Source: a virus (lineage: Duplodnaviria; Heunggongvirae; Uroviricota; Caudoviricetes). From it: 64,000 bases of DNA. The translations under genes were made by a program, and so were the position numbers. Below are positions 1,714 to 63,716 of the stretch, one piece after another. Where the stretch lies: IMG/VR virus record IMGVR_UViG_3300001487_000052, positions 37,503 to 101,502 of that record. One strand, 5' to 3'. The stretch's first letter is position 1. Each line of letters starts with the position of its first letter. The notes beneath the pieces were generated by a model, which worked only from the letters and a program-made list of their open reading frames with translations, made no database searches and was not told where the DNA came from.

Positions 1714-4110
1714 ATGGCACAATGGACAGAAACTCTCGAACCCTATATTAAAGTTCAGGAGAGAGTAAAAACTGCAACACTCAATCCTTCTGCTGGTGAG
1801 GATCTGATTATAGGTGTTGCTTTAATATCTGATGCTGGTCCTTCCACTCCAACACTTATCACTAGTCAATCGGAGTTTCTAAGTACCTATGCATCTCAAG
1901 ACGTAACTCAGGCCTACATTGAAGGATTAAATAAACTTTACAAGGGAGATGATAAGACCCTTGCTTCTACTATGTGGGCTAATGCTTATAGACTTGCTGG
2001 TTCTAATTCCATTTTATGTGTTAGAGCAAGTAAGGCTAATAACCTATACTTTACTAAACCACTCAATAACGAAGATGGTACTGATCCTACTACCTATGTT
2101 ATTAGAGATGGTGAAATGTTGAAAAAAGTTCCCTCCTTTAAAATCACTCTTAATGATATTGGAGATGAAGCAAATCTAGATACTGATGGTTGGAGTATTA
2201 ATATTGCAGGAGTAGGTATCTTTGGTAATCGTGTAACTGACGATGGTATTCAATATGATTACTACTGCGGTAATCTTCCTGATCTTATTGATAGTCTTAA
2301 TGACACATCTAAATTCTTCTGCCCAGACTATGAATTCCTTGATAATCAGGGAAATATTATTGAGGTTGATATGAGTGACACTAGTTCCAGGAGTAATGTT
2401 GCAATTTCTAAGATGTTCCTCAAAGAAGTTTATCTTGGAGCAGAAGTTATTGATACCACAGACCCCAGAACTAGTAAGCTTAGCTGGAAAATATTAGACC
2501 ATCCAACTCAGGCTCAGATTGATAAAGCAAGTGCGAGTGGTGAGCCCAAGAACGATTTTAATAAGGTTAGGCAAGTTCCAGTAACTGAGGATAATGCTAA
2601 GGAGGGGCAGGAGATGGTCTTAAGTTTTTATGACGAAGACCATGTTGTTACATATTGTGAATTACAGGATGATAATACTGGTATGCTCTATATCTATACC
2701 ATTAATTATAGCCCTGATCCTAGCCAAGACGAGAAAGATATAATTAACCTCAATGATGCCGCTTATTCTGGATTTGTGGCTGAAAAGAATTATGCTATTA
2801 ATGTTTTTAATTCCTCGACTGAACTTAAAGTTAGAATTCGTAGATTTAATCATAATGCTGTAATTTCTAAAACTCTTAGTAATTCTGAACTGGGAAGCCT
2901 AACTGCAAACGGTCCTTCTCCTTGGACTGTTCTTACTGGCACCCTTGATACTTTTACAGGAGGAGACGAACCAAAAACAGAACTTGATGATAGTGTTCTT
3001 TATCAGGATTTCTATGAGATTGCTGTTTGGGATCCAAGTATCAATGAAGTTGTAAGTTTCTTCAACCTCGGTAATATCCTAGGTCGTGGTGATATGGAGG
3101 TAAGTGAAGTTAATGATCTGCTTAAGATGATTCAACTCTCACTCCCTGATAACCTCGAAGACCTAGATCTTAACTATTTCGGATATACTGAGAATACTGT
3201 AGCTGGTCATCTTGCTCAAATTTTCTGTGACCTTACTATTGACCCAACCGAGTACACAATGCTTAATATTTCCGATTCTGATTTAAAACGTGCTCTTGAT
3301 AATCTCGCTTTGGATGAGGTTTATACTACTGAGGGCTTATGCGACTTAGGAAATACAGAACTTAGCTATCAGAATTATATGGCTTCAATGGCTATTAATG
3401 ATAACTACTTCTATCCCATCTCAACAGTCAACAGCACTAACTATATGACCATCGGAAACTCGGCAACTAAGATTTCTGCTGATTCCTATAAACTGTATAT
3501 GAGTGCTCCTTGGGATATCGATACTGGTACTCTTGGTTGGAAATTCTACTGCAGTCCATCCGTCATCTATTGGGAGACTGTTGCTAAGAATAGAAGAAAT
3601 AATAGAGAGTTTGCTCCAATTCTTGGTCAGGATAATGGAACTGTTCAATATCAGAGACCAACTACCGAATTCAATAAGAGGACTAGACAACTCTTACTCT
3701 CGAGAAAAGTCAACACTGCTATGTGGGATGTTGCTCTTCAAGCTTGGGTAATGAATGATAACTATACGAAACAGACTGAAAATACTATCATGAATGATGA
3801 GGGTAATTCTCGTCTTATGATTCGTATTAGTAAAGCCATGCCCACACTTCTTAGACAGTATATTGGTAAGAGAATTTCCGAGAAACTTTGTAAGAACGTT
3901 GAAGATACTATTGACTATTTCTTCAAAACTAACATTCTTAGCATGGAGTATAATATTGATGGTTATAGAATCACCTGTAAGTACGATGAGATTCTTGCCA
4001 GACAGAACAAGATTAAAGTCCATATTGAAGTTAGATATCAGAGAGCTCTTAAGTATATTGACGTAATCAACGATGCCTATGAAATAGGCCTTCCGTTTGA
4101 GGGAGAATAA
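1714..4110 (+). CDS. putative tail sheath protein (798 aa)
   Basis: N-terminal region LNPSAGEDLIIGVALISDAGPSTPTLITSQSEFLSTYAS matches the characteristic sheath N-terminal pattern (aliG-x-GP...P-litS-x-eF-x-yG), as in T4 gp18-like sheaths. Large size. Followed by a terminator hairpin. Confidence 0.45.
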   Translation: MAQWTETLEPYIKVQERVKTATLNPSAGEDLIIGVALISDAGPSTPTLITSQSEFLSTYASQDVTQAYIEGLNKLYKGDDKTLASTMWANAYRLAGSNSILCVRASKANNLYFTKPLNNEDGTDPTTYVIRDGEMLKKVPSFKITLNDIGDEANLDTDGWSINIAGVGIFGNRVTDDGIQYDYYCGNLPDLIDSLNDTSKFFCPDYEFLDNQGNIIEVDMSDTSSRSNVAISKMFLKEVYLGAEVIDTTDPRTSKLSWKILDHPTQAQIDKASASGEPKNDFNKVRQVPVTEDNAKEGQEMVLSFYDEDHVVTYCELQDDNTGMLYIYTINYSPDPSQDEKDIINLNDAAYSGFVAEKNYAINVFNSSTELKVRIRRFNHNAVISKTLSNSELGSLTANGPSPWTVLTGTLDTFTGGDEPKTELDDSVLYQDFYEIAVWDPSINEVVSFFNLGNILGRGDMEVSEVNDLLKMIQLSLPDNLEDLDLNYFGYTENTVAGHLAQIFCDLTIDPTEYTMLNISDSDLKRALDNLALDEVYTTEGLCDLGNTELSYQNYMASMAINDNYFYPISTVNSTNYMTIGNSATKISADSYKLYMSAPWDIDTGTLGWKFYCSPSVIYWETVAKNRRNNREFAPILGQDNGTVQYQRPTTEFNKRTRQLLLSRKVNTAMWDVALQAWVMNDNYTKQTENTIMNDEGNSRLMIRISKAMPTLLRQYIGKRISEKLCKNVEDTIDYFFKTNILSMEYNIDGYRITCKYDEILARQNKIKVHIEVRYQRALKYIDVINDAYEIGLPFEGE

Positions 4111-4200: not shown

Positions 4201-5250
4201 ATGAGCAGAAAATTAGAATATAGTATCGCAGAAAAACTCATATTTGAAAAAATAGACTATATAAATAAAGAACATAACTTAGACTTAAATTTCGTAGGGG
4301 TTAAAGATAATTGGATTGGTAATGGAAGTAGAATTCTGTTATTTTGTAATATTCATAAAATAACTATAGATGTAAGCTATAGAAATTTTATTAGATTAGA
4401 AAAGTATGGTTGTCCTGAATGTGCAACTAAAAAACATCATGAATCACAAAGACGAACTACCGAAGAGTTCATTAAACTATCAAAAGAGAAATATGGTGAT
4501 AAATTTACATATGAGAAGACAAACTATGTTACTGCTAAGAAAAAAGTTATAATCACCTGTAAAGAACATGGAGATTTTCTTGTAAGTCCAGATTATCATT
4601 TAAGAGAATCCACTATAGCAGGTGGCTGTCCTGAATGTAAACGTACTGTGTACTATGAATCGAATAAAAGGCCAGTAGAAGAATTTATTGAAAAAGCAAG
4701 AGAAGTGCACGGGGATAAATATGACTACTCTAAGGTTAATTATGTTAATAACATTACACCTATAATAATTATATGTCCTATTCATGGAGAGTTTTCTCAA
4801 CTTCCAACAACACATTTACAAGGCTGTGGGTGTCATAGGTGTAGTTGCTCTATAGGAGAAACCATACTATTTGATTATTTCTCTGAGCATGAAATAACTC
4901 CACTTCATCATACGGTGATACATTATGATGATCATACACTTATACCTGATTTCTTGATAGAACTTAATGGTAAACAATATATGATAGAGTATAACGGGAT
5001 ACAACATTACAACCCAAACAATTATTTTAACTCGTTAAATAATAGAAATTCCAATTTGCAAGGATTCGAGTATCAAAAGAACAGAGACGAGTTAAAGATT
5101 AAATATTGTAACGAAAATAATTTAATTTTAATTATTGTCCCTTATATTCTTGATAAAAAAGAAAAAATTTATAATTATATGGACAAAGTATTATATGAGG
5201 GTATTCCACCGAACTCACTTATAGACTTTGATTCATTATACGTTACATAA
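4201..5250 (+). CDS. homing-endonuclease-like protein: two tandem Zn-knuckle repeats plus a C-terminal Vsr/DUF559-like PD-(D/E)xK nuclease motif
   Basis: Two roughly 70-aa tandem repeats, each CPEC-x-EEFI-x-(H/Y)GDK(F/Y)xY-K-NYV...I-C-x-HG(D/E)F...P-x-HL. C-terminal IPDFLIELNGKQYMIEYNGIQHY resembles the vDf...IE-DG..H endonuclease core. Free-standing between a terminator and the next structural gene. Confidence 0.45.
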   Translation: MSRKLEYSIAEKLIFEKIDYINKEHNLDLNFVGVKDNWIGNGSRILLFCNIHKITIDVSYRNFIRLEKYGCPECATKKHHESQRRTTEEFIKLSKEKYGDKFTYEKTNYVTAKKKVIITCKEHGDFLVSPDYHLRESTIAGGCPECKRTVYYESNKRPVEEFIEKAREVHGDKYDYSKVNYVNNITPIIIICPIHGEFSQLPTTHLQGCGCHRCSCSIGETILFDYFSEHEITPLHHTVIHYDDHTLIPDFLIELNGKQYMIEYNGIQHYNPNNYFNSLNNRNSNLQGFEYQKNRDELKIKYCNENNLILIIVPYILDKKEKIYNYMDKVLYEGIPPNSLIDFDSLYVT

Positions 5251-29704: not shown

Positions 29705-30252
29705 TGATAATATTTAGAGAAAAATTATTTAGAAGGGATGATGTTTCTGATAATGATTTAAAGCAACTACTTGATGATCCAGACCTAGTTAAAGAATACG
29801 GTCCCTCCGAGTTGATTATAATAGCTTCAAAAAAATATAATGAGGATCTGAAAAAACTAGGAATAAAAGGTAGTGCTGATAGAAACGTACTAGAAAAATT
29901 AAAAAAGGATGTAAGAAGCGGATACCTATTTAATGATGGTCCTGGAAAGGGAGATACACACCCGTTAGGAGATTTTTCTAAAAAAGATAAATCTTATGTA
30001 TTTTCTAAAAAGATATCAGAACAGCATAGATTTAACTATCGAATCTTTCCACCAAAATTAGAACTGGATGATAAAACAGGAAAACTCAGATACGGAAGAA
30101 AAGTTATATTAGTTTCTTGTTATGGCCATGAAACAGAAGAAGGGGATTATTTAAATGATAAAAATCTCCGCTCTAGGAAGAATAGAATGAGAGGAAATGC
30201 GCCTTATCGTAAATCTGAATCTATAATGAAGAAAAAGAAAAAAAATAGATGA
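29701..30252 (+). CDS. MIIxREK-family protein
   Basis: N-terminus MMIIFREKLFRR. ATGA overlap with 30249. Confidence 0.5.
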   Translation: MMIIFREKLFRRDDVSDNDLKQLLDDPDLVKEYGPSELIIIASKKYNEDLKKLGIKGSADRNVLEKLKKDVRSGYLFNDGPGKGDTHPLGDFSKKDKSYVFSKKISEQHRFNYRIFPPKLELDDKTGKLRYGRKVILVSCYGHETEEGDYLNDKNLRSRKNRMRGNAPYRKSESIMKKKKKNR

Positions 30253-30662
30253 TAAAATACATAGGTAACGATAATTTTAATGTAGATGGAGAAATAATAA
30301 AATCTACTGACTTAATCGAGGGTTGTGTGGGTTGGTATTTTAAACATGTGAGTAGCTGGCTGTGGAATGAGAAAAAACTTTGGGATCCTGAGCTAGATGA
30401 ATCTATTATCAGTCGTGTAAAAACTATTGCCATTATTCTTAGCCTCCGAACCTCATCTCCAATTTCTTACTACATAATAGACTTCCAAACACCTAGGATA
30501 TGCTATTTCAAAGTTTTATATGAAGATTACCTAGATATACGATTAACTTTTACATATGACCAAGTAAATTCGTTTTCTATGATGACCGACCCTAACTACC
30601 CTGGAGATATAATGACAATAGAAAATATAAGCATTCAAGATATAATAGAAATAATTAAATAA
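30249..30662 (+). CDS. MIKYIGND-family protein, paralog B
   Basis: N-terminus MIKYIGNDNF. Paralog of 27229-27648. Confidence 0.45.
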   Translation: MIKYIGNDNFNVDGEIIKSTDLIEGCVGWYFKHVSSWLWNEKKLWDPELDESIISRVKTIAIILSLRTSSPISYYIIDFQTPRICYFKVLYEDYLDIRLTFTYDQVNSFSMMTDPNYPGDIMTIENISIQDIIEIIK

Positions 30663-30664
30663 AT

Positions 30665-30739
30665 GGTGTGTATAGCTCAATTGGTTAGAGCTCTAGATTG
30701 TGGTTCTAGGGGTTGTCAGTTCGATTCTGACTACACACC
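30665..30739 (+). tRNA. tRNA-His (anticodon GUG) with genomically encoded G-1
   Basis: Manual fold. G-1 at 30665. Acceptor GTGTGTA/TACACAC. D-stem GCTC/GAGC. Anticodon stem CTAGA/TCTAG with loop TTGTGGT. T-arm GTCAG-TTCGATT-CTGAC. Discriminator C at 30739. CCA not fully encoded. Confidence 0.8.
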
Positions 30740-30974
30740 CAAAATAAAGATGAAGATAGGAGACTGTTTTTATCTTTTTTGTTTGCTGTGGAATGGTTTA
30801 AGGGGGTGGAGTGGTTCCCTTCGAGACGAGCGTAGCGAAGTCGAGATCCAACTCGAACTAATAAATCAAAGCTAAGTATTTTAAGCGGAACGCTTTAATA
30901 ATATAGCTTTAAATCTCTAGTTCGAATAATTACCAAGAGAGCCGCCTTCCCGGTGCCCGCCAGAATTCTATTAC

Positions 30975-31143
30975 GTTCGTTCATTCCTCACTATGTTCGT
31001 CATTACCTCACTACATAACGAATTCAACCCGGCTCTCTTTATCTTACGGGTTATCCTCGTTAAAAATTTCTTCTCGCTTCCATCCGTTGCTCGTAGCGAA
31101 ATTTTTTGGAAATCTTAACGTTTCGTTCGTTCCTCACTACACT
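30975..31143 (+). repeat. iteron-like direct repeats (GTTCGTTCATTCCTCACTA x3, degenerate) in a 530-bp noncoding region
   Basis: R1 30975-30993, R2 30996-31014 (adjacent), R3 31125-31143. A shared 9-mer CGTAGCGAA also occurs at 30832-30840 and 31094-31102. Confidence 0.45.
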
Positions 31144-31316
31144 AATTTCCAACACTCGTCCGGGAACCCTAAGATAGAAAGAAATATCCTACATAGATGG
31201 ATTAATAAAAATTGGAAATTGGAAAATATTCCTCCATATAAACCCAACAACGTTTTTAGGAATTAAAATTGGAAAAACACAGTCTAGAAAATCTTAAATC
31301 CTAATAGATGAATGAT

Positions 31317-31348
31317 GAAAGGGTACCAGTCCAGAGGTGTACCCTTTC
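31317..31348 (+). promoter_or_regulatory. perfect 10-bp-stem hairpin (GAAAGGGTAC/GTACCCTTTC, 12-nt loop) about 60 nt upstream of the helicase-like gene
   Basis: Read directly. Followed by a palindrome GTATAC-TTGGAATA-GTATAC at 31371-31390. Confidence 0.4.
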
Positions 31349-31409
31349 CAGATGATGATTATAACGTAACGTATACTTGGAATAGTATACCCTTAAAACA
31401 AATTAAATT

Positions 31410-33503
31410 ATGAATGATAATGAAGAAAGAAAAATGAATGTTATACCAATAGAAGTTCCTGAAGATGTTGAATATATTTCCCAATGGACTTCTTTTGTTT
31501 ATCCCATGGGAAATGTAATTCTTGATAAAACTATTTGTGGGTGTGGATTTACTGAATACTGTTTAAATAACACCATTCCAACTGTTTTATGTAGTCCCAG
31601 AAAGAAATTATTAGAGAACAAAGAAGAACAACATAATAGTGGTGAAAATCCACAGATGAGACCTATATATTATTTCAGAAATGACTATGAAAATAATATA
31701 GAATATGATAGTAGTAAAAATGAAGAGAAACTAAAAACCCCATTTGATAGTAATGAGGAGAGTTCATCTAATTATCTTTTTGCTATTAAGGAACAAGAAA
31801 ACCTAGACAAATTAGCAAAATCAGAAAAGAAGGATTATCTATCTCCTATTAAAGATCAACTTCGTTCCTATATTGAATCTTGTAGTAGTCAAAGCAGTCC
31901 ATTTAAAATTATTGTTACTTACGATTCCCTTCATCATGTACTGGATGTTCTTAATGAATATTACTCTTCTAGTTCTTATGTTATTGTTGTGGATGAATTT
32001 CAATCAATTTTTATGGATGCGTCTTTTAAGGCAGAGGTAGAGTTAGATTTTGTAGAAGATGTAAAGGGTTGTGCTAATGTTCTCTATCTATCAGCTACAC
32101 CAATGCTAGAGAAATATTTAGTTGAACTAGATTATTTCTGTGATCTCCCTATGTACAAATTTAAGTGGAATGAAAAGAGAGTAGAAAATGTAAGGTCAGA
32201 ATTAAGAATAGTAAAGAGTATAAATAATGAAGTTTCTAAGATTATACAGAACTATAGGGAAGGAAAGTATTTTGATAAAGTTCTTTCTGATGGTACTATA
32301 AGATACTCAAAAGAACTAGTAATATTTGTTAATTCTATTAGATCTATTTGTGATATTATTCGTAAATGTGATCTTAAACCAGAGGAAACTAATATAATAT
32401 GCTCTGATTCTTCTACCAATATAAAACAATTAAAGAGAGTGGGACATCAAATAGGAAACATACCTACATTTGGTCAACCACATAAGATGTTTACTTTATG
32501 TACCCGAACTACTTATCTTGGAGCAGATTTTTATTCTACTAACGCTTTTACGGTAGTTTGTTCAGATTGTAATATTCAGACTATGACAATTGATATTTCT
32601 CTAGACTTACCACAAATCTTAGGTAGACAGAGGTTAAAAGAGAATGTGTTTAGAAATGAAGTACTAATCCTTTATAAATCAGAAACAAAGAAAGGTGCTA
32701 TAATAAATGAAAAGAAGTTAGTTAATGATGAGAAAGTAAAATATAAAGAGGGAAGAACGCTTGAATTATTAGAGGGATATAATAAGATGTCAGATAGAGA
32801 AAAAGAGTTATGTGCAGAGAAATGGGCTAATGATAAAAACCTCTATAAAAATGATTATATAGGTATATCTAATCGTACAGGAAAAGCTACATTCAATTAC
32901 CTAGTTAAGATAGCTGATAAACGAGCCTATGATGTAACTAGAAAAGAATATATAGATGACATTACAATCAGAAGAGGAATTGAATCTATTGAATCTTCTA
33001 ATATAACGATTGTAGATAATATTAATACTGAGCTTCAAGGGGCTTATGAATACTTTATTTCTGAGTTCGATAAGGATAATAATTTTGAAAGAAGAATGAA
33101 GTTGCTATGTGATACTTATTTTCAGTATCCAGGTTTCTTTCAGGCTTATTCTAGTTCTCCACTTCAATGTATTATTCCTATTAACTATCAAAATTATATT
33201 AATCTTTTAGGTTTTGAAAGAATAAAAGCTTTGAAATATAGAGAGTCAGATATAATTTCCTATATTCAATCTCAACAAAATCTACAAAACTCTTCTATAA
33301 CTTCTCTCTTCAATGTAGGAGATAAATATACTACAAAACAAATAAAAGAAGTGTTAGCAAATTTTTACTCTCTCAATTCTATTACTAAAACTGCTAAAGC
33401 TTCAGATCTCGAGCAATATTATATTCTCAAAGCCATTAAACTCAAAGTAGGAGATAAGTGGGAGCATGGATTTGAGATAATAGCTATAAAATCCCAGCCC
33501 TAA
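31410..33503 (+). CDS. SF2 helicase/NTPase-like protein (DExQ box)
   Basis: IVVDEFQSIF (Walker B/DExQ-like, about nt 31985) and LYLSATP (motif III-like SAT, about nt 32085). No canonical GxGKT Walker A was seen, so assignment is tentative. Confidence 0.45.
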   Translation: MNDNEERKMNVIPIEVPEDVEYISQWTSFVYPMGNVILDKTICGCGFTEYCLNNTIPTVLCSPRKKLLENKEEQHNSGENPQMRPIYYFRNDYENNIEYDSSKNEEKLKTPFDSNEESSSNYLFAIKEQENLDKLAKSEKKDYLSPIKDQLRSYIESCSSQSSPFKIIVTYDSLHHVLDVLNEYYSSSSYVIVVDEFQSIFMDASFKAEVELDFVEDVKGCANVLYLSATPMLEKYLVELDYFCDLPMYKFKWNEKRVENVRSELRIVKSINNEVSKIIQNYREGKYFDKVLSDGTIRYSKELVIFVNSIRSICDIIRKCDLKPEETNIICSDSSTNIKQLKRVGHQIGNIPTFGQPHKMFTLCTRTTYLGADFYSTNAFTVVCSDCNIQTMTIDISLDLPQILGRQRLKENVFRNEVLILYKSETKKGAIINEKKLVNDEKVKYKEGRTLELLEGYNKMSDREKELCAEKWANDKNLYKNDYIGISNRTGKATFNYLVKIADKRAYDVTRKEYIDDITIRRGIESIESSNITIVDNINTELQGAYEYFISEFDKDNNFERRMKLLCDTYFQYPGFFQAYSSSPLQCIIPINYQNYINLLGFERIKALKYRESDIISYIQSQQNLQNSSITSLFNVGDKYTTKQIKEVLANFYSLNSITKTAKASDLEQYYILKAIKLKVGDKWEHGFEIIAIKSQP

Positions 33504-33556
33504 AAACGGGAGCGACCACTTTTTAAGGAGTTTTTGATATGAAACCCTTATATATG

Positions 33557-33594
33557 TAGAGAAGTTTGATTATCAGCTTCTCTACTGTTTTGTT
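33557..33594 (+). terminator. terminator-like hairpin after the helicase-like gene
   Basis: TAGAGAAG...CTTCTCTA stem followed by CTGTTTTGTT. Confidence 0.4.
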
Positions 33595-37129: not shown

Positions 37130-37668
37130 AAATATTTGTTCCATTATACTTAAGAGATATCCCAGTAATTTCTCAGTTTGTTCAGATTTATAGTAAGTAT
37201 GCAGAAGACTATAGAGAAGATCCGAGAGATAGCCTAGCCGATTATAGAGAGTCTCTGAAAAGAGATCCTGTAAAATATTTTGTAGGCATGTGTTTTGATG
37301 AAGAGGAGCTTGGGGATAAGTACGATGATATAGTAAATTATGTATCTCGTCTCTTTGAATCTGTAAAGGGAACTGAGAAGATATTTGACTACATGAAAAA
37401 GTACTTAAATGATTATCTCGACATACAGGGGGAGCCAACTTACACAGGACAATATATAGAGATTATGTTTGGTGCCTTAGTTCTCACGGATGAAGAACAT
37501 TTTTATACATCCTTATATAATTTCCTCAGTGCCCTCTTGGTATTTGAAGACCTTATCACAAATATAGGAGATTTAGGTCTGACAGTTAAAGATGAGATAA
37601 CTAATTATGTAGCAGCAGATGTTATATGCTACAAAAAATATAATATAAATTATGAAGCTAGTAATTAA
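37126..37668 (+). CDS. baseplate protein I-like (by synteny and size, 180 aa)
   Basis: Coupled ORF between the J-like gene and the first fiber gene. Confidence 0.3.
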   Translation: MKIFVPLYLRDIPVISQFVQIYSKYAEDYREDPRDSLADYRESLKRDPVKYFVGMCFDEEELGDKYDDIVNYVSRLFESVKGTEKIFDYMKKYLNDYLDIQGEPTYTGQYIEIMFGALVLTDEEHFYTSLYNFLSALLVFEDLITNIGDLGLTVKDEITNYVAADVICYKKYNINYEASN

Positions 37669-60834: not shown

Positions 60835-62832
60835 TTATTCTCCTTCGGGTTCTGTCTCGGGTTCAGGATCCGGCTTAGGCTCTGTTGCATGATTTTTGTC
60901 AAACGCATCCAACATACCTAAGAGACCTTGAGCACCAGGGACATTTTCTTTCAGAGTATTTACAGATTCAACTGCCTTGACAATACCGGAAAGTAAGCCA
61001 GGAACAGTGTCAGTGCCTCCGAGAACAGTGACGTTTCCAAGTTTAATATGCTCGAATTTCTTAGCGTCAGCCTCAGCGATGTGTTTGAGTTCCTCTTTGA
61101 GAACGAACTGAACAACCTGACCACCAGACATACCAGCATCAAGGAGAGCCTGGAGATCAGCGGTTGTAGCGGCCTTCTCAAGTTTCATGGCTTCTGCAAC
61201 AGCTTTACGACCCTCAGCCTCAGCAAGTGCCTTTGCTCTAATAGCATCAGCTTCTGCAAGAGCTTTTCTACGGATAGCTTCAGCTTCACCATCGGCCTCT
61301 GTAATAGTTTTCTGCTTGATACCCTCAGCCTCAGCAATTTTACGATCAGCCTCAATCTGAGTACCAACCATGATGTTAGCAGTCTGAATAGCTTTCTCAG
61401 CTTCAGCTTCAGCAAGAGCAACTTCCTTTCTCTTATTAGCCTCAGCGATACCTACGGCTTTTTCCGAGTTTGCCTTAGATTCACCGATGATCTGGTCAGC
61501 TTCAGCACGCTCCTTACCTAAGTTGGCATCAGACTTTGCAACTTCAACTCCAGCCGTATTTTCAGTAAGTTTGGCATCCTTTTTAGCGATAGCCCTACGT
61601 TTCTGTGTACCGGCTTCAGCTTCAGCAATTTTACTCTCTTTCTCCTGCTCTGCTTCTCTGATTTTTGCTTCAGCGTCTTGAGTAGCAGCCTGTTTACGAG
61701 CTTCTGCATTTTGCTGGAACTCGACAATACTAGCATCAGAGTCTTGAGTGGCCTTTTGCTGTGCTGTACGAGATTCAGCTTGCTTTTCAGCGATAGTGGC
61801 ATCTCTCTTTGCATTAGCGGCAGCAGTCTCGGATTCAGTGAGGGCCTGTTGTTGGGCAATAGCAACATCCTTTAGTTTCTTCTGCTCAGCAACTTTCTGG
61901 GCCTGTTCGGATTGAGCAGTGGCAACCTGTACTTCTTTCTCCTTCACGACTTCGGCCACCTGAGTAGCTTCTTCTTTGGCGATATTAGCAGTTTCCACGG
62001 ACTGATCTTTCTCAATCTCACGGGTCTTAATTGCCTGTTCCTTCTCAGTGCTTCTCAACTTAACGTCACGATCCTTCTCAGTCTCAGCAACGATAGTCTT
62101 CTGGTCACGGTCATTCTCAGCCACCTTAGTCTGCTGTTCCTTCTGAATCTGAGCAAGACTAACAGCCTTCTCTTTCTCCTGCGTAGCAATACCGACTTCA
62201 CCGTCTTTGGTCTTCTCAGCAATGTCAGCGAGGGCCTGATACTTAGCCTCACTAGCAGCTTTCTTACCGAGGTTGACAATATATTCGGCGTTATCAGAGA
62301 TGTCAGAAATATTGATGTTGATAAGAGTAAGACCAAACTTCTCCAGTTCATTAGAGATGTTATTCTTACTAGATCCTATGAATTTTTCACGATCTGCAAT
62401 AAGCTCCTCAACGGTCATATCAGCAATAACAAGACGCATCTGACCCCAGACAACATCCTTAATCTGGCTGACTTTTTCTTCTTCCTTTAATCCGAGAAGA
62501 CGGATGGCAGCGTTTTGCATAATCTCTGGCTTATCCGAGATGGCAACAGTAACAACAGTGGGCACATTAACTTCGATCTTTTGTTTTGAGAGTGCCCCAC
62601 TGAGGTTGCAGGTAATTTGCATAGGTTTCATGCTCATCACTGCATGTCCCTGAATAACCGGCCATACAAAAGCAGCTCCACCATGATAACATTTGGCAGA
62701 TGTTTTTCCGGATGTTTTACCATACACCACAAGAACTTCATCCGAACGACATTTCTTGTAGCGGCTCAAAATTCCAACAATAGTCAGAATCACAAGGAGT
62801 GCAATAACTCCAGCAATAATGTAAATTTGCAT
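60835..62832 (-). CDS. flotillin-like SPFH/band-7 protein (YqiK/FloT-like)
   Basis: N-terminal TM helix, SPFH-like region, long Ala/Glu/Lys coiled-coil (AEAEAEKA..., RKALAEADAIRAKALAEAEGRKA), acidic PEPETEPEGE tail. Confidence 0.75.
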   Translation of the reverse strand: MQIYIIAGVIALLVILTIVGILSRYKKCRSDEVLVVYGKTSGKTSAKCYHGGAAFVWPVIQGHAVMSMKPMQITCNLSGALSKQKIEVNVPTVVTVAISDKPEIMQNAAIRLLGLKEEEKVSQIKDVVWGQMRLVIADMTVEELIADREKFIGSSKNNISNELEKFGLTLININISDISDNAEYIVNLGKKAASEAKYQALADIAEKTKDGEVGIATQEKEKAVSLAQIQKEQQTKVAENDRDQKTIVAETEKDRDVKLRSTEKEQAIKTREIEKDQSVETANIAKEEATQVAEVVKEKEVQVATAQSEQAQKVAEQKKLKDVAIAQQQALTESETAAANAKRDATIAEKQAESRTAQQKATQDSDASIVEFQQNAEARKQAATQDAEAKIREAEQEKESKIAEAEAGTQKRRAIAKKDAKLTENTAGVEVAKSDANLGKERAEADQIIGESKANSEKAVGIAEANKRKEVALAEAEAEKAIQTANIMVGTQIEADRKIAEAEGIKQKTITEADGEAEAIRRKALAEADAIRAKALAEAEGRKAVAEAMKLEKAATTADLQALLDAGMSGGQVVQFVLKEELKHIAEADAKKFEHIKLGNVTVLGGTDTVPGLLSGIVKAVESVNTLKENVPGAQGLLGMLDAFDKNHATEPKPDPEPETEPEGE

Positions 62833-63434: not shown

Positions 63435-63704
63435 TTATAAGGAATAGAGATATCCAATCTTATCATGTCTACCTATCTCTACTTCCTCTACAAACCTCAC
63501 TGTTTCTTCAGTTAATTCTCTTCCTAGGTATCTATTAGGAAGACTATAAAATCTCCAAGAGTAAGAAACTAATATTCTCTTAGTTAACCTTTTTCTTACT
63601 TTACTATAAGGAAAATTTAGATAACGACGAATCTCAGTGAATAAAATTTTTAAGTCACCTCCTATATAGTAAACAATTATCATCTCAGGTATAAGGCTTA
63701 GCAA
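63435..63704 (-). CDS. hypothetical protein (89 aa)
   Basis: ORF only. Confidence 0.25.
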   Translation of the reverse strand: MLSLIPEMIIVYYIGGDLKILFTEIRRYLNFPYSKVRKRLTKRILVSYSWRFYSLPNRYLGRELTEETVRFVEEVEIGRHDKIGYLYSL

Positions 63705-63716
63705 TTCCTTATATAT

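Follow-up and report, generated by a model that had tools for sequence, protein, structure and literature searches.

What does a long noncoding region rich in repeats do directly in front of a helicase-like gene? The question is raised by 64,000 nucleotides of viral DNA (Caudoviricetes; IMG/VR record IMGVR_UViG_3300001487_000052, positions 37,503 to 101,502), hereafter the window, which looks like part of a tailed myovirus-type phage. All coordinates are positions in this 64-kb window, and L-numbers denote the loci compared with it. Between a tRNA-His gene (30666-30740, plus strand) and the ATG at 31410 of a superfamily 2 (SF2) ATPase/helicase-like open reading frame (ORF) lie 669 nt without a credible ORF. 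The initial annotation, which put this noncoding stretch at 530 bp, took direct repeats and palindromes at 30975-31409 for the iterons of a candidate replication origin. We find that these repeats are apical-loop expansions of two helices, P2 and P5, and form no free-standing iteron array. The element to which they belong begins further upstream than the annotated range, at about 30790, and together with the SF2 ORF it constitutes a discrete, movable cassette. We tentatively read the element, from sequence comparison, as a transcribed, structured RNA of the gene strand, coupled in cis to the SF2 gene.

All of the reported repeats and palindromes are present where they had been placed, and two of them, a 20-mer and a 9-mer, are far above chance. 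The unit of roughly 20 nt, GTTCGTTCATTCCTCACTA, occupies 30975-30993 (to 30994 as a full unit) and is followed directly by a degenerate copy at 30995-31013 (unit to 31014; 78% identity over 18 nt) and later by a third copy with two mismatches at 31121-31139 (unit to 31140). The three are 78-94% identical and irregularly spaced, at 20 and 126 nt, and no further copy occurs on either strand of the 64 kb at three or fewer mismatches (chance expectation 0). The shared 9-mer, CGTAGCGAA, has just two copies in the window (30831 and 31092; 0.06 expected), but the first falls outside the annotated range and belongs to a conserved 5′ segment, GAGACGAGCGTAGCGAAG. The second (31092-31100) forms the 3′ side of the loop and stem of another helix, P4. 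The AT-rich TTGGAAA(T/A) repeats are there as well, with three of the five window copies of ATTGGAAAW at 31211, 31218 and 31268, though taken alone their count has no window-wide significance. The remaining items are a perfect 10-bp hairpin (arms 31317-31326 and 31339-31348; folding z -2.2) and the palindrome GTATAC-N8-GTATAC, with half-sites at 31371-31376 and 31385-31390. In composition, 30790-31180 has 43-46% GC against a background of 25-33%, with a C-rich plus strand. Directly 3′ of this GC-rich part, 100-nt windows fall to 25% GC, and an AT-rich stretch adjoining the repeats, as an iteron-type origin requires, is thus present at 31183-31316.

Comparison among relatives places these repeats within a conserved fold. 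The element, about 560 nt long (approximately 30790-31350), comprises helices P0 to P5 and a gene-proximal hairpin (Table 1), and each domain of the window folds as in the comparative model with the repeats left unpaired. A common architecture precedes all homologues of the ORF: a GC-rich block from about -550 to -250, an AT-rich spacer, a GC-rich hairpin from about -100 to -50, and the ATG. For P1 and P2, computed on 25 distinct cores, 86% of cells are paired compared with 57.7% in shuffles, double-sided changes occur in 17 of 18 pairs, and the covariation score is 0.70 versus 0.18 (0/500 shuffles), with slid partners reaching at most 0.29. P1 alone takes at least eight unrelated sequences that are complementary every time, such as AAGAGAGCCG/CGGCTCTCTT in the window, GGGAAAAGCAAG/CTTGCTTTTCCC in L240 and GAGAGGTTAAG/CTTAACCTCTC in L292. 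The motifs that the two helices enclose are conserved and unpaired: one side has GCCTTCCC...GCCACAA (GCCAGAA in the window), the opposite side (G/C)AACC (AACC in the window). Among eight window-type elements, RNAalifold gives seven double-sided pairs in P3, an invariant P4 and one compensatory change in P5. Compensatory changes are also found in the base and apical stems of P0 (L213, L248, L006 and L229), and the proximal hairpin, which occupies its position in 83 of 127 loci with its own sequence in each, has a compensatory G-C to A-T change in L089. A symmetric helix census returned 252 helices against about 101 per shuffle set, 2.5 times more.

The 20-mers, by comparison, sit in the variable parts of this fold. 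The tandem pair lies in the apical loop of P2, and the apical loop of P5 (CTTAACG plus 31121-31140) contains the third copy. Among relatives whose proteins are 57-94% identical, the P2 loop ranges from 5 to about 58 nt: it is CTAAC in L001, L003 and L233, about 30 nt of different sequence in L002 and L227, and 45-58 nt in others. These loops are pyrimidine-rich throughout, being built of CATTCC, CGTTC and CTCAC units and ending in TAAC, and their repeat copy number varies from 0 to 2. P5 units are likewise variable, with two in L089, L092 and L213 versus one in the window. The proposed origin had been tied to conservation of the repeats in relatives; neither their number nor their sequence is kept among close relatives.

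Table 1. Coordinates of the element, its gene and the adjoining features in the window
Feature	Position	Strand	Basis or remark
Imperfect hairpin and T-run after tRNA-His	30743..30780	+	inverted repeat I2, 17 nt, 76% complementary
Purine-rich 5′ boundary segment (GGAATGG...GGAGTGGTTCCC), then GAGACGAGCGTAGCGAAGTCGAG with first CGTAGCGAA	30790..30852	+	blastn
P0, long AT-rich hairpin, apical stem AAGCG-GAA-CGCTT	30853..30925	+	inverted repeat I1; fold z -4.7
Domain 1 (P1 + P2)	30935..31039	+	covariation; model R1 match; fold z -2.9
P1, AAGAGAGCCG / CGGCTCTCTT	30935-30944 / 31030-31039	+	covariation
Conserved junction CCTTCCCGGTGCCCGCCA	30945-30962	+	between P1 and P2
P2, GAATTC / GAATTC	30963-30968 / 31020-31025	+	covariation
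P2 apical loop, two tandem 20-mers	30969-31019	+	
Junction AACC	31026-31029	+	
Domain 2 (P3-P5)	31040..31176	+	RNAalifold consensus; inverted repeats I3, I19, I25
P3	31040-31052 / 31165-31176	+	
P4, AAAAATTTC / GAAATTTTT	31062-31070 / 31098-31106	+	
P5, TGGAAAT / ATTTCCA	31107-31113 / 31145-31151	+	
AT-rich spacer with ATTGGAAAW repeats	31183..31316	+	composition, repeats
Proximal hairpin GAAAGGGTAC / GTACCCTTTC	31317..31348	+	inverted repeat I13
GTATAC-N8-GTATAC palindrome	31371..31390	+	repeat D10
SF2 ATPase/helicase-like ORF, 697 aa	31410..33503	+	motifs DEFQ, SAT, QxxGRxxR
Promoter-like motif TATATAAGGGTTTcA, pointing back into the SF2 ORF	33540-33554	-	38 nt after ORF
Hairpin 33556-33564/33577-33585 and T-run beside TATATAAGGGTTTcA	33540..33585 region	-	

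The element is strictly associated with its gene. A covariance model of domain 1, R1, matches the window once, at 30931-31043 (81.7 bits, E 1e-22), and in 177 loci chosen by their protein it gave 56 matches; 55 lie 340-560 nt before the gene and on its strand. A loose DNA pattern, GCCTTCCC-N2-8-GCCACAA, applied to viral contigs, picked out mostly unrelated GC-rich contigs and was reused as a negative control. R1 matched 13 of 100 loci chosen by this pattern, all in contigs of these phages, and the homologous gene lay about 350 nt downstream in 11/11 matches with enough flank. About two-thirds of the family loci lack the R1 core yet keep the general architecture, and the element family is therefore diverse. 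Searches with Rfam 15 returned, beyond the tRNA, only sub-threshold matches well below gathering scores for 30000-32000 at E<=10; at gathering thresholds the tRNA was the sole match in 15 related loci, with no ROOL, GOLLD or HEARO, and GenBank phage relatives gave only tRNA matches near the locus. Our literature searches found no description of the element or of the protein family. Candidate cis-regulatory RNAs have been catalogued from IMG/VR (PMC10690425), and parts of the element may be among the unnamed ones.

Element and gene also travel as one unit. The cassette, 30790-33482 (about 2.7 kb), consists of a noncoding region of about 620 nt and the SF2 ORF, and is found in four genomic contexts unrelated to one another, its copies sharing 80-86% DNA identity. 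In blastn comparisons with L089, L092 and L213, whose proteins are 86-94% identical to that of the window, homology begins at 30790 (L089 and L213) or 30806 (L092) and stops at 33482, with unrelated flanks on either side. The right flank of L089 matches window positions 64000-60089, reversed, at 92%; the same phage lineage therefore holds the cassette at another place. Homologues of the SF2 protein run to thousands (4,595 among 8,000 scored candidates), derive from gut and rumen metagenomes and are all unnamed. Among genomes the gene is carried by metagenome-assembled genome (MAG) bins only, and the setting of element and gene is that of uncultured large gut and rumen phages. Several distinct homologues often share a contig: a contig of 332 kb has five, one of 97.6 kb has three, and IMG/VR contigs of 340 kb have at least five. 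Within some contigs the leader cores are 94-96% identical at a coding identity of about 71% (L002/L003 on the 97.6-kb contig and L227/L242 on an 85-kb contig), a homogenisation that is not seen in L233/L240. Such likeness points to gene conversion or to a shared trans-acting partner and fits RNA and DNA readings of the element alike.

Further gene copies were encountered beside these. Directly beside complete cassettes in L118, L124 and L137 stand partial SF2 genes (C-terminal fragments) or tandem copies that have diverged, which suggests tandem arrays, or one cassette inserted beside or into another. Three SF2 gene copies (L294, L296 and L297) lie on JAGAYY010000025.1, a 376-kb contig binned in a 'Bacilli bacterium' MAG that is probably a mis-binned jumbo phage genome. 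Two candidate paralogues were rejected on comparison: a 665-aa minus-strand ORF at 60835-62832 of the window, and the ORF downstream of the cassette in L092.

The protein partner is itself unusual. Its motif I reads CGCGFT (31536-31553, codons 43-48), and the Walker-A lysine is replaced by Phe in 16/16 aligned homologues (47-94% identical to the window protein). Because this lysine is replaced while motifs II, III and VI stay, the alignment suggests an atypical or non-hydrolysing ATPase. The protein has no match in Pfam (E<=0.01), PHROGs, PADLOC, NCBIfam or PDB sequences, and neither sequence nor structure searches recognised a nuclease or recombinase domain in it. Its AlphaFold model (predicted local distance difference test, pLDDT, 73) gave a generic match to SF2 helicases. 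Foldseek against the PDB returned Hjm, the origin-binding protein of herpes simplex virus 1 (HSV-1; bound to OriS, rank 2, E about 2e-6), WRN and DbpA. Against BFVD, an unnamed viral protein (E 2e-28) was followed by giant-virus 'replication origin-binding protein' entries at about 1e-8 (ranks 3 and 11). The earlier description of the gene as helicase-like consequently holds at the level of the fold and no further, with origin-binding proteins among the structural neighbours.

That the element acts as RNA, and from the plus strand, we infer from its fixed orientation, a promoter-like motif at its boundary, pairing to an RNA-like hairpin, and its conserved unpaired motifs. The promoter-like motif, TATATAAGGGTTTG, is strictly intergenic: none of 21 occurrences lies inside a same-strand ORF, six precede ORFs by 42-123 nt, and L006 (14853(+)/15000(-)) and L243 (636(+)/599(-)) have it as divergent pairs. 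It thus behaves like a phage promoter, and six relatives (L001, L002, L213, L215, L240 and L248) have it in gene-strand orientation at the element's 5′ boundary. A copy antisense to the SF2 gene also follows it, 34-114 nt downstream, in the window and in L001, L233 and L018; one more window copy lies at 63702-63715 (-). The proximal hairpins (57 unique) contain 33 G.T against 18 A.C, compared with 118 against 147 in shuffles, an excess of G.T of the kind expected for a plus-strand RNA.

The 5′ end of the element is complementary to two other parts of it. Positions 30808-30821 are complementary, at 12 of 14 nt, to the proximal hairpin's 5′ arm with its loop (31319-31332), or, equivalently, are a direct repeat of its 3′ arm. 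The same relation recurs with locus-specific sequences, GGTCTGGAATGG in L001-type loci (12/12) and TTTGGTAAGGA in L006 (11/11), and over 16 nt in L213, 24 nt in L266 and 14 nt in L060; at the boundary, TTGGAATGG versus AGTGGAATGG tracks the hairpin loop CATTCCAA versus CATTCCAC. The hairpin's 3′ arm recurs once more 16 nt before the ATG, where the 3′ half of the GTATAC palindrome and its flank (GTATACCCTT, 31385-31394) repeat it; the palindrome is kept in L089 and L092 and absent in L006. The second complementarity joins 30825-30840 to the junction of the tandem 20-mers (30986-31001), with 12 Watson-Crick and 2 G.U pairs of 16, and has counterparts between loop and 5′ segment in L089, L213, L248, L216, L006 and L002.

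We speculate that these parts would work together as follows. In relatives, the promoter-like motif at the 5′ boundary would give the cassette a transcription start of its own, whereas in the window transcription would arrive by read-through from the tRNA-His unit, where 3′ processing of the tRNA could define the 5′ end of the transcript. The folded core would display its unpaired motifs (GCCUUCCC, GCCACAA, GAACC and CUUAAC) and the pyrimidine-rich loop repeats as accessible platforms. The purine-rich 5′-terminal segment may pair with the loop repeats and also, some 500 nt away, with the 5′ arm and loop of the hairpin just before the start codon, in competition with the local hairpin. The state of the leader, whether folded or protein-bound, possibly by the SF2 protein itself, would then be coupled to expression of the ORF.

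Several observations weigh against this account. The window's own element has no promoter-like motif TATATAAGGGTTTG at its 5′ boundary. The core helices are almost purely Watson-Crick; their counts of G.T versus A.C are 126 versus 89 at the lax threshold (at least 9 Watson-Crick pairs) and 25 versus 23 and 12 versus 12 at strict ones. Folding z is equal on the two strands, with a mean of about -2 on both over 73 loci, and RNAalifold scores the minus strand slightly better (-30.7 versus -24.0 for plus), each strand having its own conserved wobble positions. Since both strands score alike, these folds fix neither the strand nor the molecule, RNA or DNA. Pyrimidine-rich loops, such as those of the plus strand, are uncommon in structured RNAs. 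Further, alignments of relatives contain a family-wide conserved box, ACACAGTCTAGAAAATCTTAAATCCTAATAGATGAAT, at about 31278-31314, which may include a proximal promoter with the -10-like TAATAGAT; such a box before the proximal hairpin suggests that the mRNA possibly starts downstream of the core, in which case the core would be a separate transcript or a DNA element. Locus-specific pairing between the P2 loop and the 5′ region was tried and rejected, being no better within a locus than between related loci. The complementarity is therefore family-wide only and is not demonstrated covariation. Two likenesses of short motifs were also dropped as at odds with the helices or too short to test: a tRNA-like or T-loop reading of GAACCC, and a resemblance between TAGCGA and CS-6, a motif of plasmid single-strand origins.

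Closest to the initial annotation is a structured-DNA replication origin with its own initiator, in which the SF2 protein would bind, the AT-rich spacer would unwind and one strand would fold into P0-P5, so that the cassette would be an origin-plus-initiator module. We consider this less probable than the RNA reading, but a serious rival to it. The helicase fold and its origin-binding neighbours suit such a module, as does the AT-rich stretch beside the element, and nearly all-Watson-Crick, strand-symmetric helices are what DNA hairpins would show; the near-identity of paralogous leader cores within a contig (94-96% versus 71% in the coding sequence) fits as well. CGTTCG...CTCAC is found in the repeats, and in the third copy the sequence is GTTCCTCAC, which exceeds HSV Box 3, GTTCTCAC (PMC12543377), by one base, although this likeness is short and could be chance; a test for HSV-type boxes found abundant hairpins and the GTTCCTCAC motif without the box-spacer-box arrangement. 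The check proposed with the annotation, cumulative GC skew, has no inflection at 31 kb: within the window it is monotonic through that point, and its single bend, at about 60 kb, coincides with the switch in gene orientation. An origin would also have to accommodate a P2 loop of 5 to about 58 nt with repeats unconserved in number and sequence, up to five or six diverged initiator paralogues per contig, for which there is no precedent, and elements that start right after a promoter-like motif in several relatives, and the invariant loss of the Walker-A lysine speaks against a motor helicase. A classical iteron origin is disfavoured by the variable repeats, the covarying helices, the multiple diverged paralogues, the missing lysine and the lack of a skew inflection. 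The original proposal holds in two respects: the element is non-random and functional in cis, and it belongs with the helicase-like gene.

A separate mRNA promoter downstream of the core, if real, would suit an RNA that acts in trans on its own, joins the SF2 protein in a ribonucleoprotein and draws specificity, as guide or scaffold, from its variable loops, by analogy with HEARO/IscB omega RNA and IS110 bridge RNA. The one-to-one pairing of element and ORF, the movable multi-copy cassette with its tandem or fragmentary copies, and a conserved scaffold carrying hypervariable apical loops are all compatible with this analogy. We nevertheless give it little credence: neither the loop repeats nor their complement is matched anywhere else in the 64 kb, the loops are not free to vary but share a family-wide pyrimidine motif, with a similar one even in the 45%-identical L004 and L014, the protein has no recognisable nuclease or recombinase domain, and no terminator was found after the core in the window. 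About as improbable is a DNA-level boundary or recombination structure, for which the promoter-stem-loop (PeSL) cassettes of T4-type phages offer a comparison. End repeats and promoter-like motifs would here shuffle or convert the cassette, and the inner helices would be template-switch by-products of quasi-palindrome repair. The four contexts at 80-86% identity, the homogenised leader cores, the inverted copies of the promoter-like motif that flank the L001 cassette, the minus-strand copies after the gene and the direct repeat of the hairpin's 3′ arm in the boundary segment are all in keeping with it. It leaves unexplained the conserved unpaired motifs (GCCTTCCC, GCCACAA and GAACCC, down to about 35% protein identity), and arms 85-120 nt apart, as in P1 and P3, are not easily kept by template switching. 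That low-complexity repeats clustered by chance in an ordinary spacer between genes is scarcely credible; the count of ATTGGAAAW and a whole-region folding z of only -0.9 on the plus strand would allow it, but the near-zero expectation for the 20-mer and 9-mer, the strong covariation and the specificity of the model contradict it.

The immediate surroundings help to delimit the unit. The hairpin and T-run after tRNA-His are terminator-like and mark the upstream boundary; they lie outside the cassette, because homology to relatives begins only at 30790. The tRNA-His gene sits 50 nt before the left boundary, and is not part of the unit since the closest relatives have other left neighbours: in L089 a 122-aa unannotated ORF, with GIY-YIG and Pyr_excise genes farther upstream, and in L092 Cpn60. 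Elsewhere in the window, an HNH/homing-endonuclease-like ORF at 4201-5250 (+) (PHROG 559, E 2e-47) directly follows a weakly tail-sheath-like ORF at 1714-4110, and is likely another mobile gene, in this case in the structural module.

Whichever molecule carries the function, what the eye takes for iterons can turn out to be expanded loops of a conserved fold, and the unit for study is the whole 2.7-kb cassette, not the repeat array. More speculatively, the cassette could be a selfish two-part module of a structured nucleic acid and an SF2 protein without its Walker-A lysine, serving either as an RNA-scaffolded or RNA-guided machine, in a repeat of the history of HEARO and IscB, or as a portable, multi-copy origin-plus-initiator replicon; we regard this as unlikely. 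Comparison with known systems shows what is shared and what is not. Iteron-type theta origins of plasmids and phages combine a Rep protein, direct repeats of 17-22 bp and an AT-rich unwinding element. The locus resembles them in its direct repeats of about 20 nt, its AT-rich neighbour, its position directly upstream of a replication-type gene, and an inverted repeat near the gene start that is reminiscent of Rep operators. Unlike them, it has its repeats in the loops of covarying helices, in numbers from 0 to 3 and with sequences that close relatives do not conserve; its partner is an SF2 ATPase-like protein of no Rep or initiator family, and the whole is a multi-copy movable unit without a skew signal.

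Structure-recognising helicases offer a second comparison. PriA recognises hairpin primosome-assembly sites. In HSV-1, OriS converts to the OriS* hairpin; both this hairpin and GTTCGCAC-type boxes are recognised by the SF2 origin-binding protein UL9 (PMC12543377). With OriS and UL9 the cassette shares a virus-encoded protein of SF2 fold, a cis-acting sequence that can fold into stable hairpins within one strand, and short GTTC..CAC-like repeats. It differs in that its protein has no Herpes_ori_bp match (Pfam, E<=0.01), no RVKNL motif and no Walker-A lysine, and in that the element is about ten times larger, with six or more helices and its own diverged protein paralogue for each copy. Were it nevertheless a DNA origin, jumbo phages would possess portable, multi-copy origin/initiator modules, a bacterial-virus parallel to herpesvirus OriS*.

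As an RNA, whether in cis, the reading to which we tentatively lean, or in trans, the element would have other counterparts. HEARO, the omega RNA of IscB, and the bridge RNA of IS110 are large RNAs upstream of multi-copy mobile ORFs and are proved guides. Together with ROOL and GOLLD they resemble the element in size, in an ornate multi-helix architecture, in their phage or rumen setting, in a fixed place upstream of a multi-copy ORF and, for the window, in adjacency to a tRNA. The element departs from them in having no Rfam 15 match and an SF2 partner without a nuclease or recombinase domain, and from guide-RNA systems in that no complementarity between loops and a target was found in the 64-kb window. 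The structured translational operators and 5′ leaders of phages, such as the T4 gene 32 pseudoknot and the candidates of PMC10690425, are comparable in being on the gene strand, kept by covariation and possibly autoregulatory. They lie within 25 nt of the start codon, whereas here a multi-domain structure of about 400-560 nt, with its core 340-560 nt upstream, is carried on a movable multi-copy cassette. If it is RNA, the element represents a large (about 400-560 nt), multi-helix, covariation-supported class without an Rfam counterpart, strictly partnered with an uncharacterised SF2 family, and similar pairings between RNA and protein came before some discoveries of RNA-guided or RNA-scaffolded machines.

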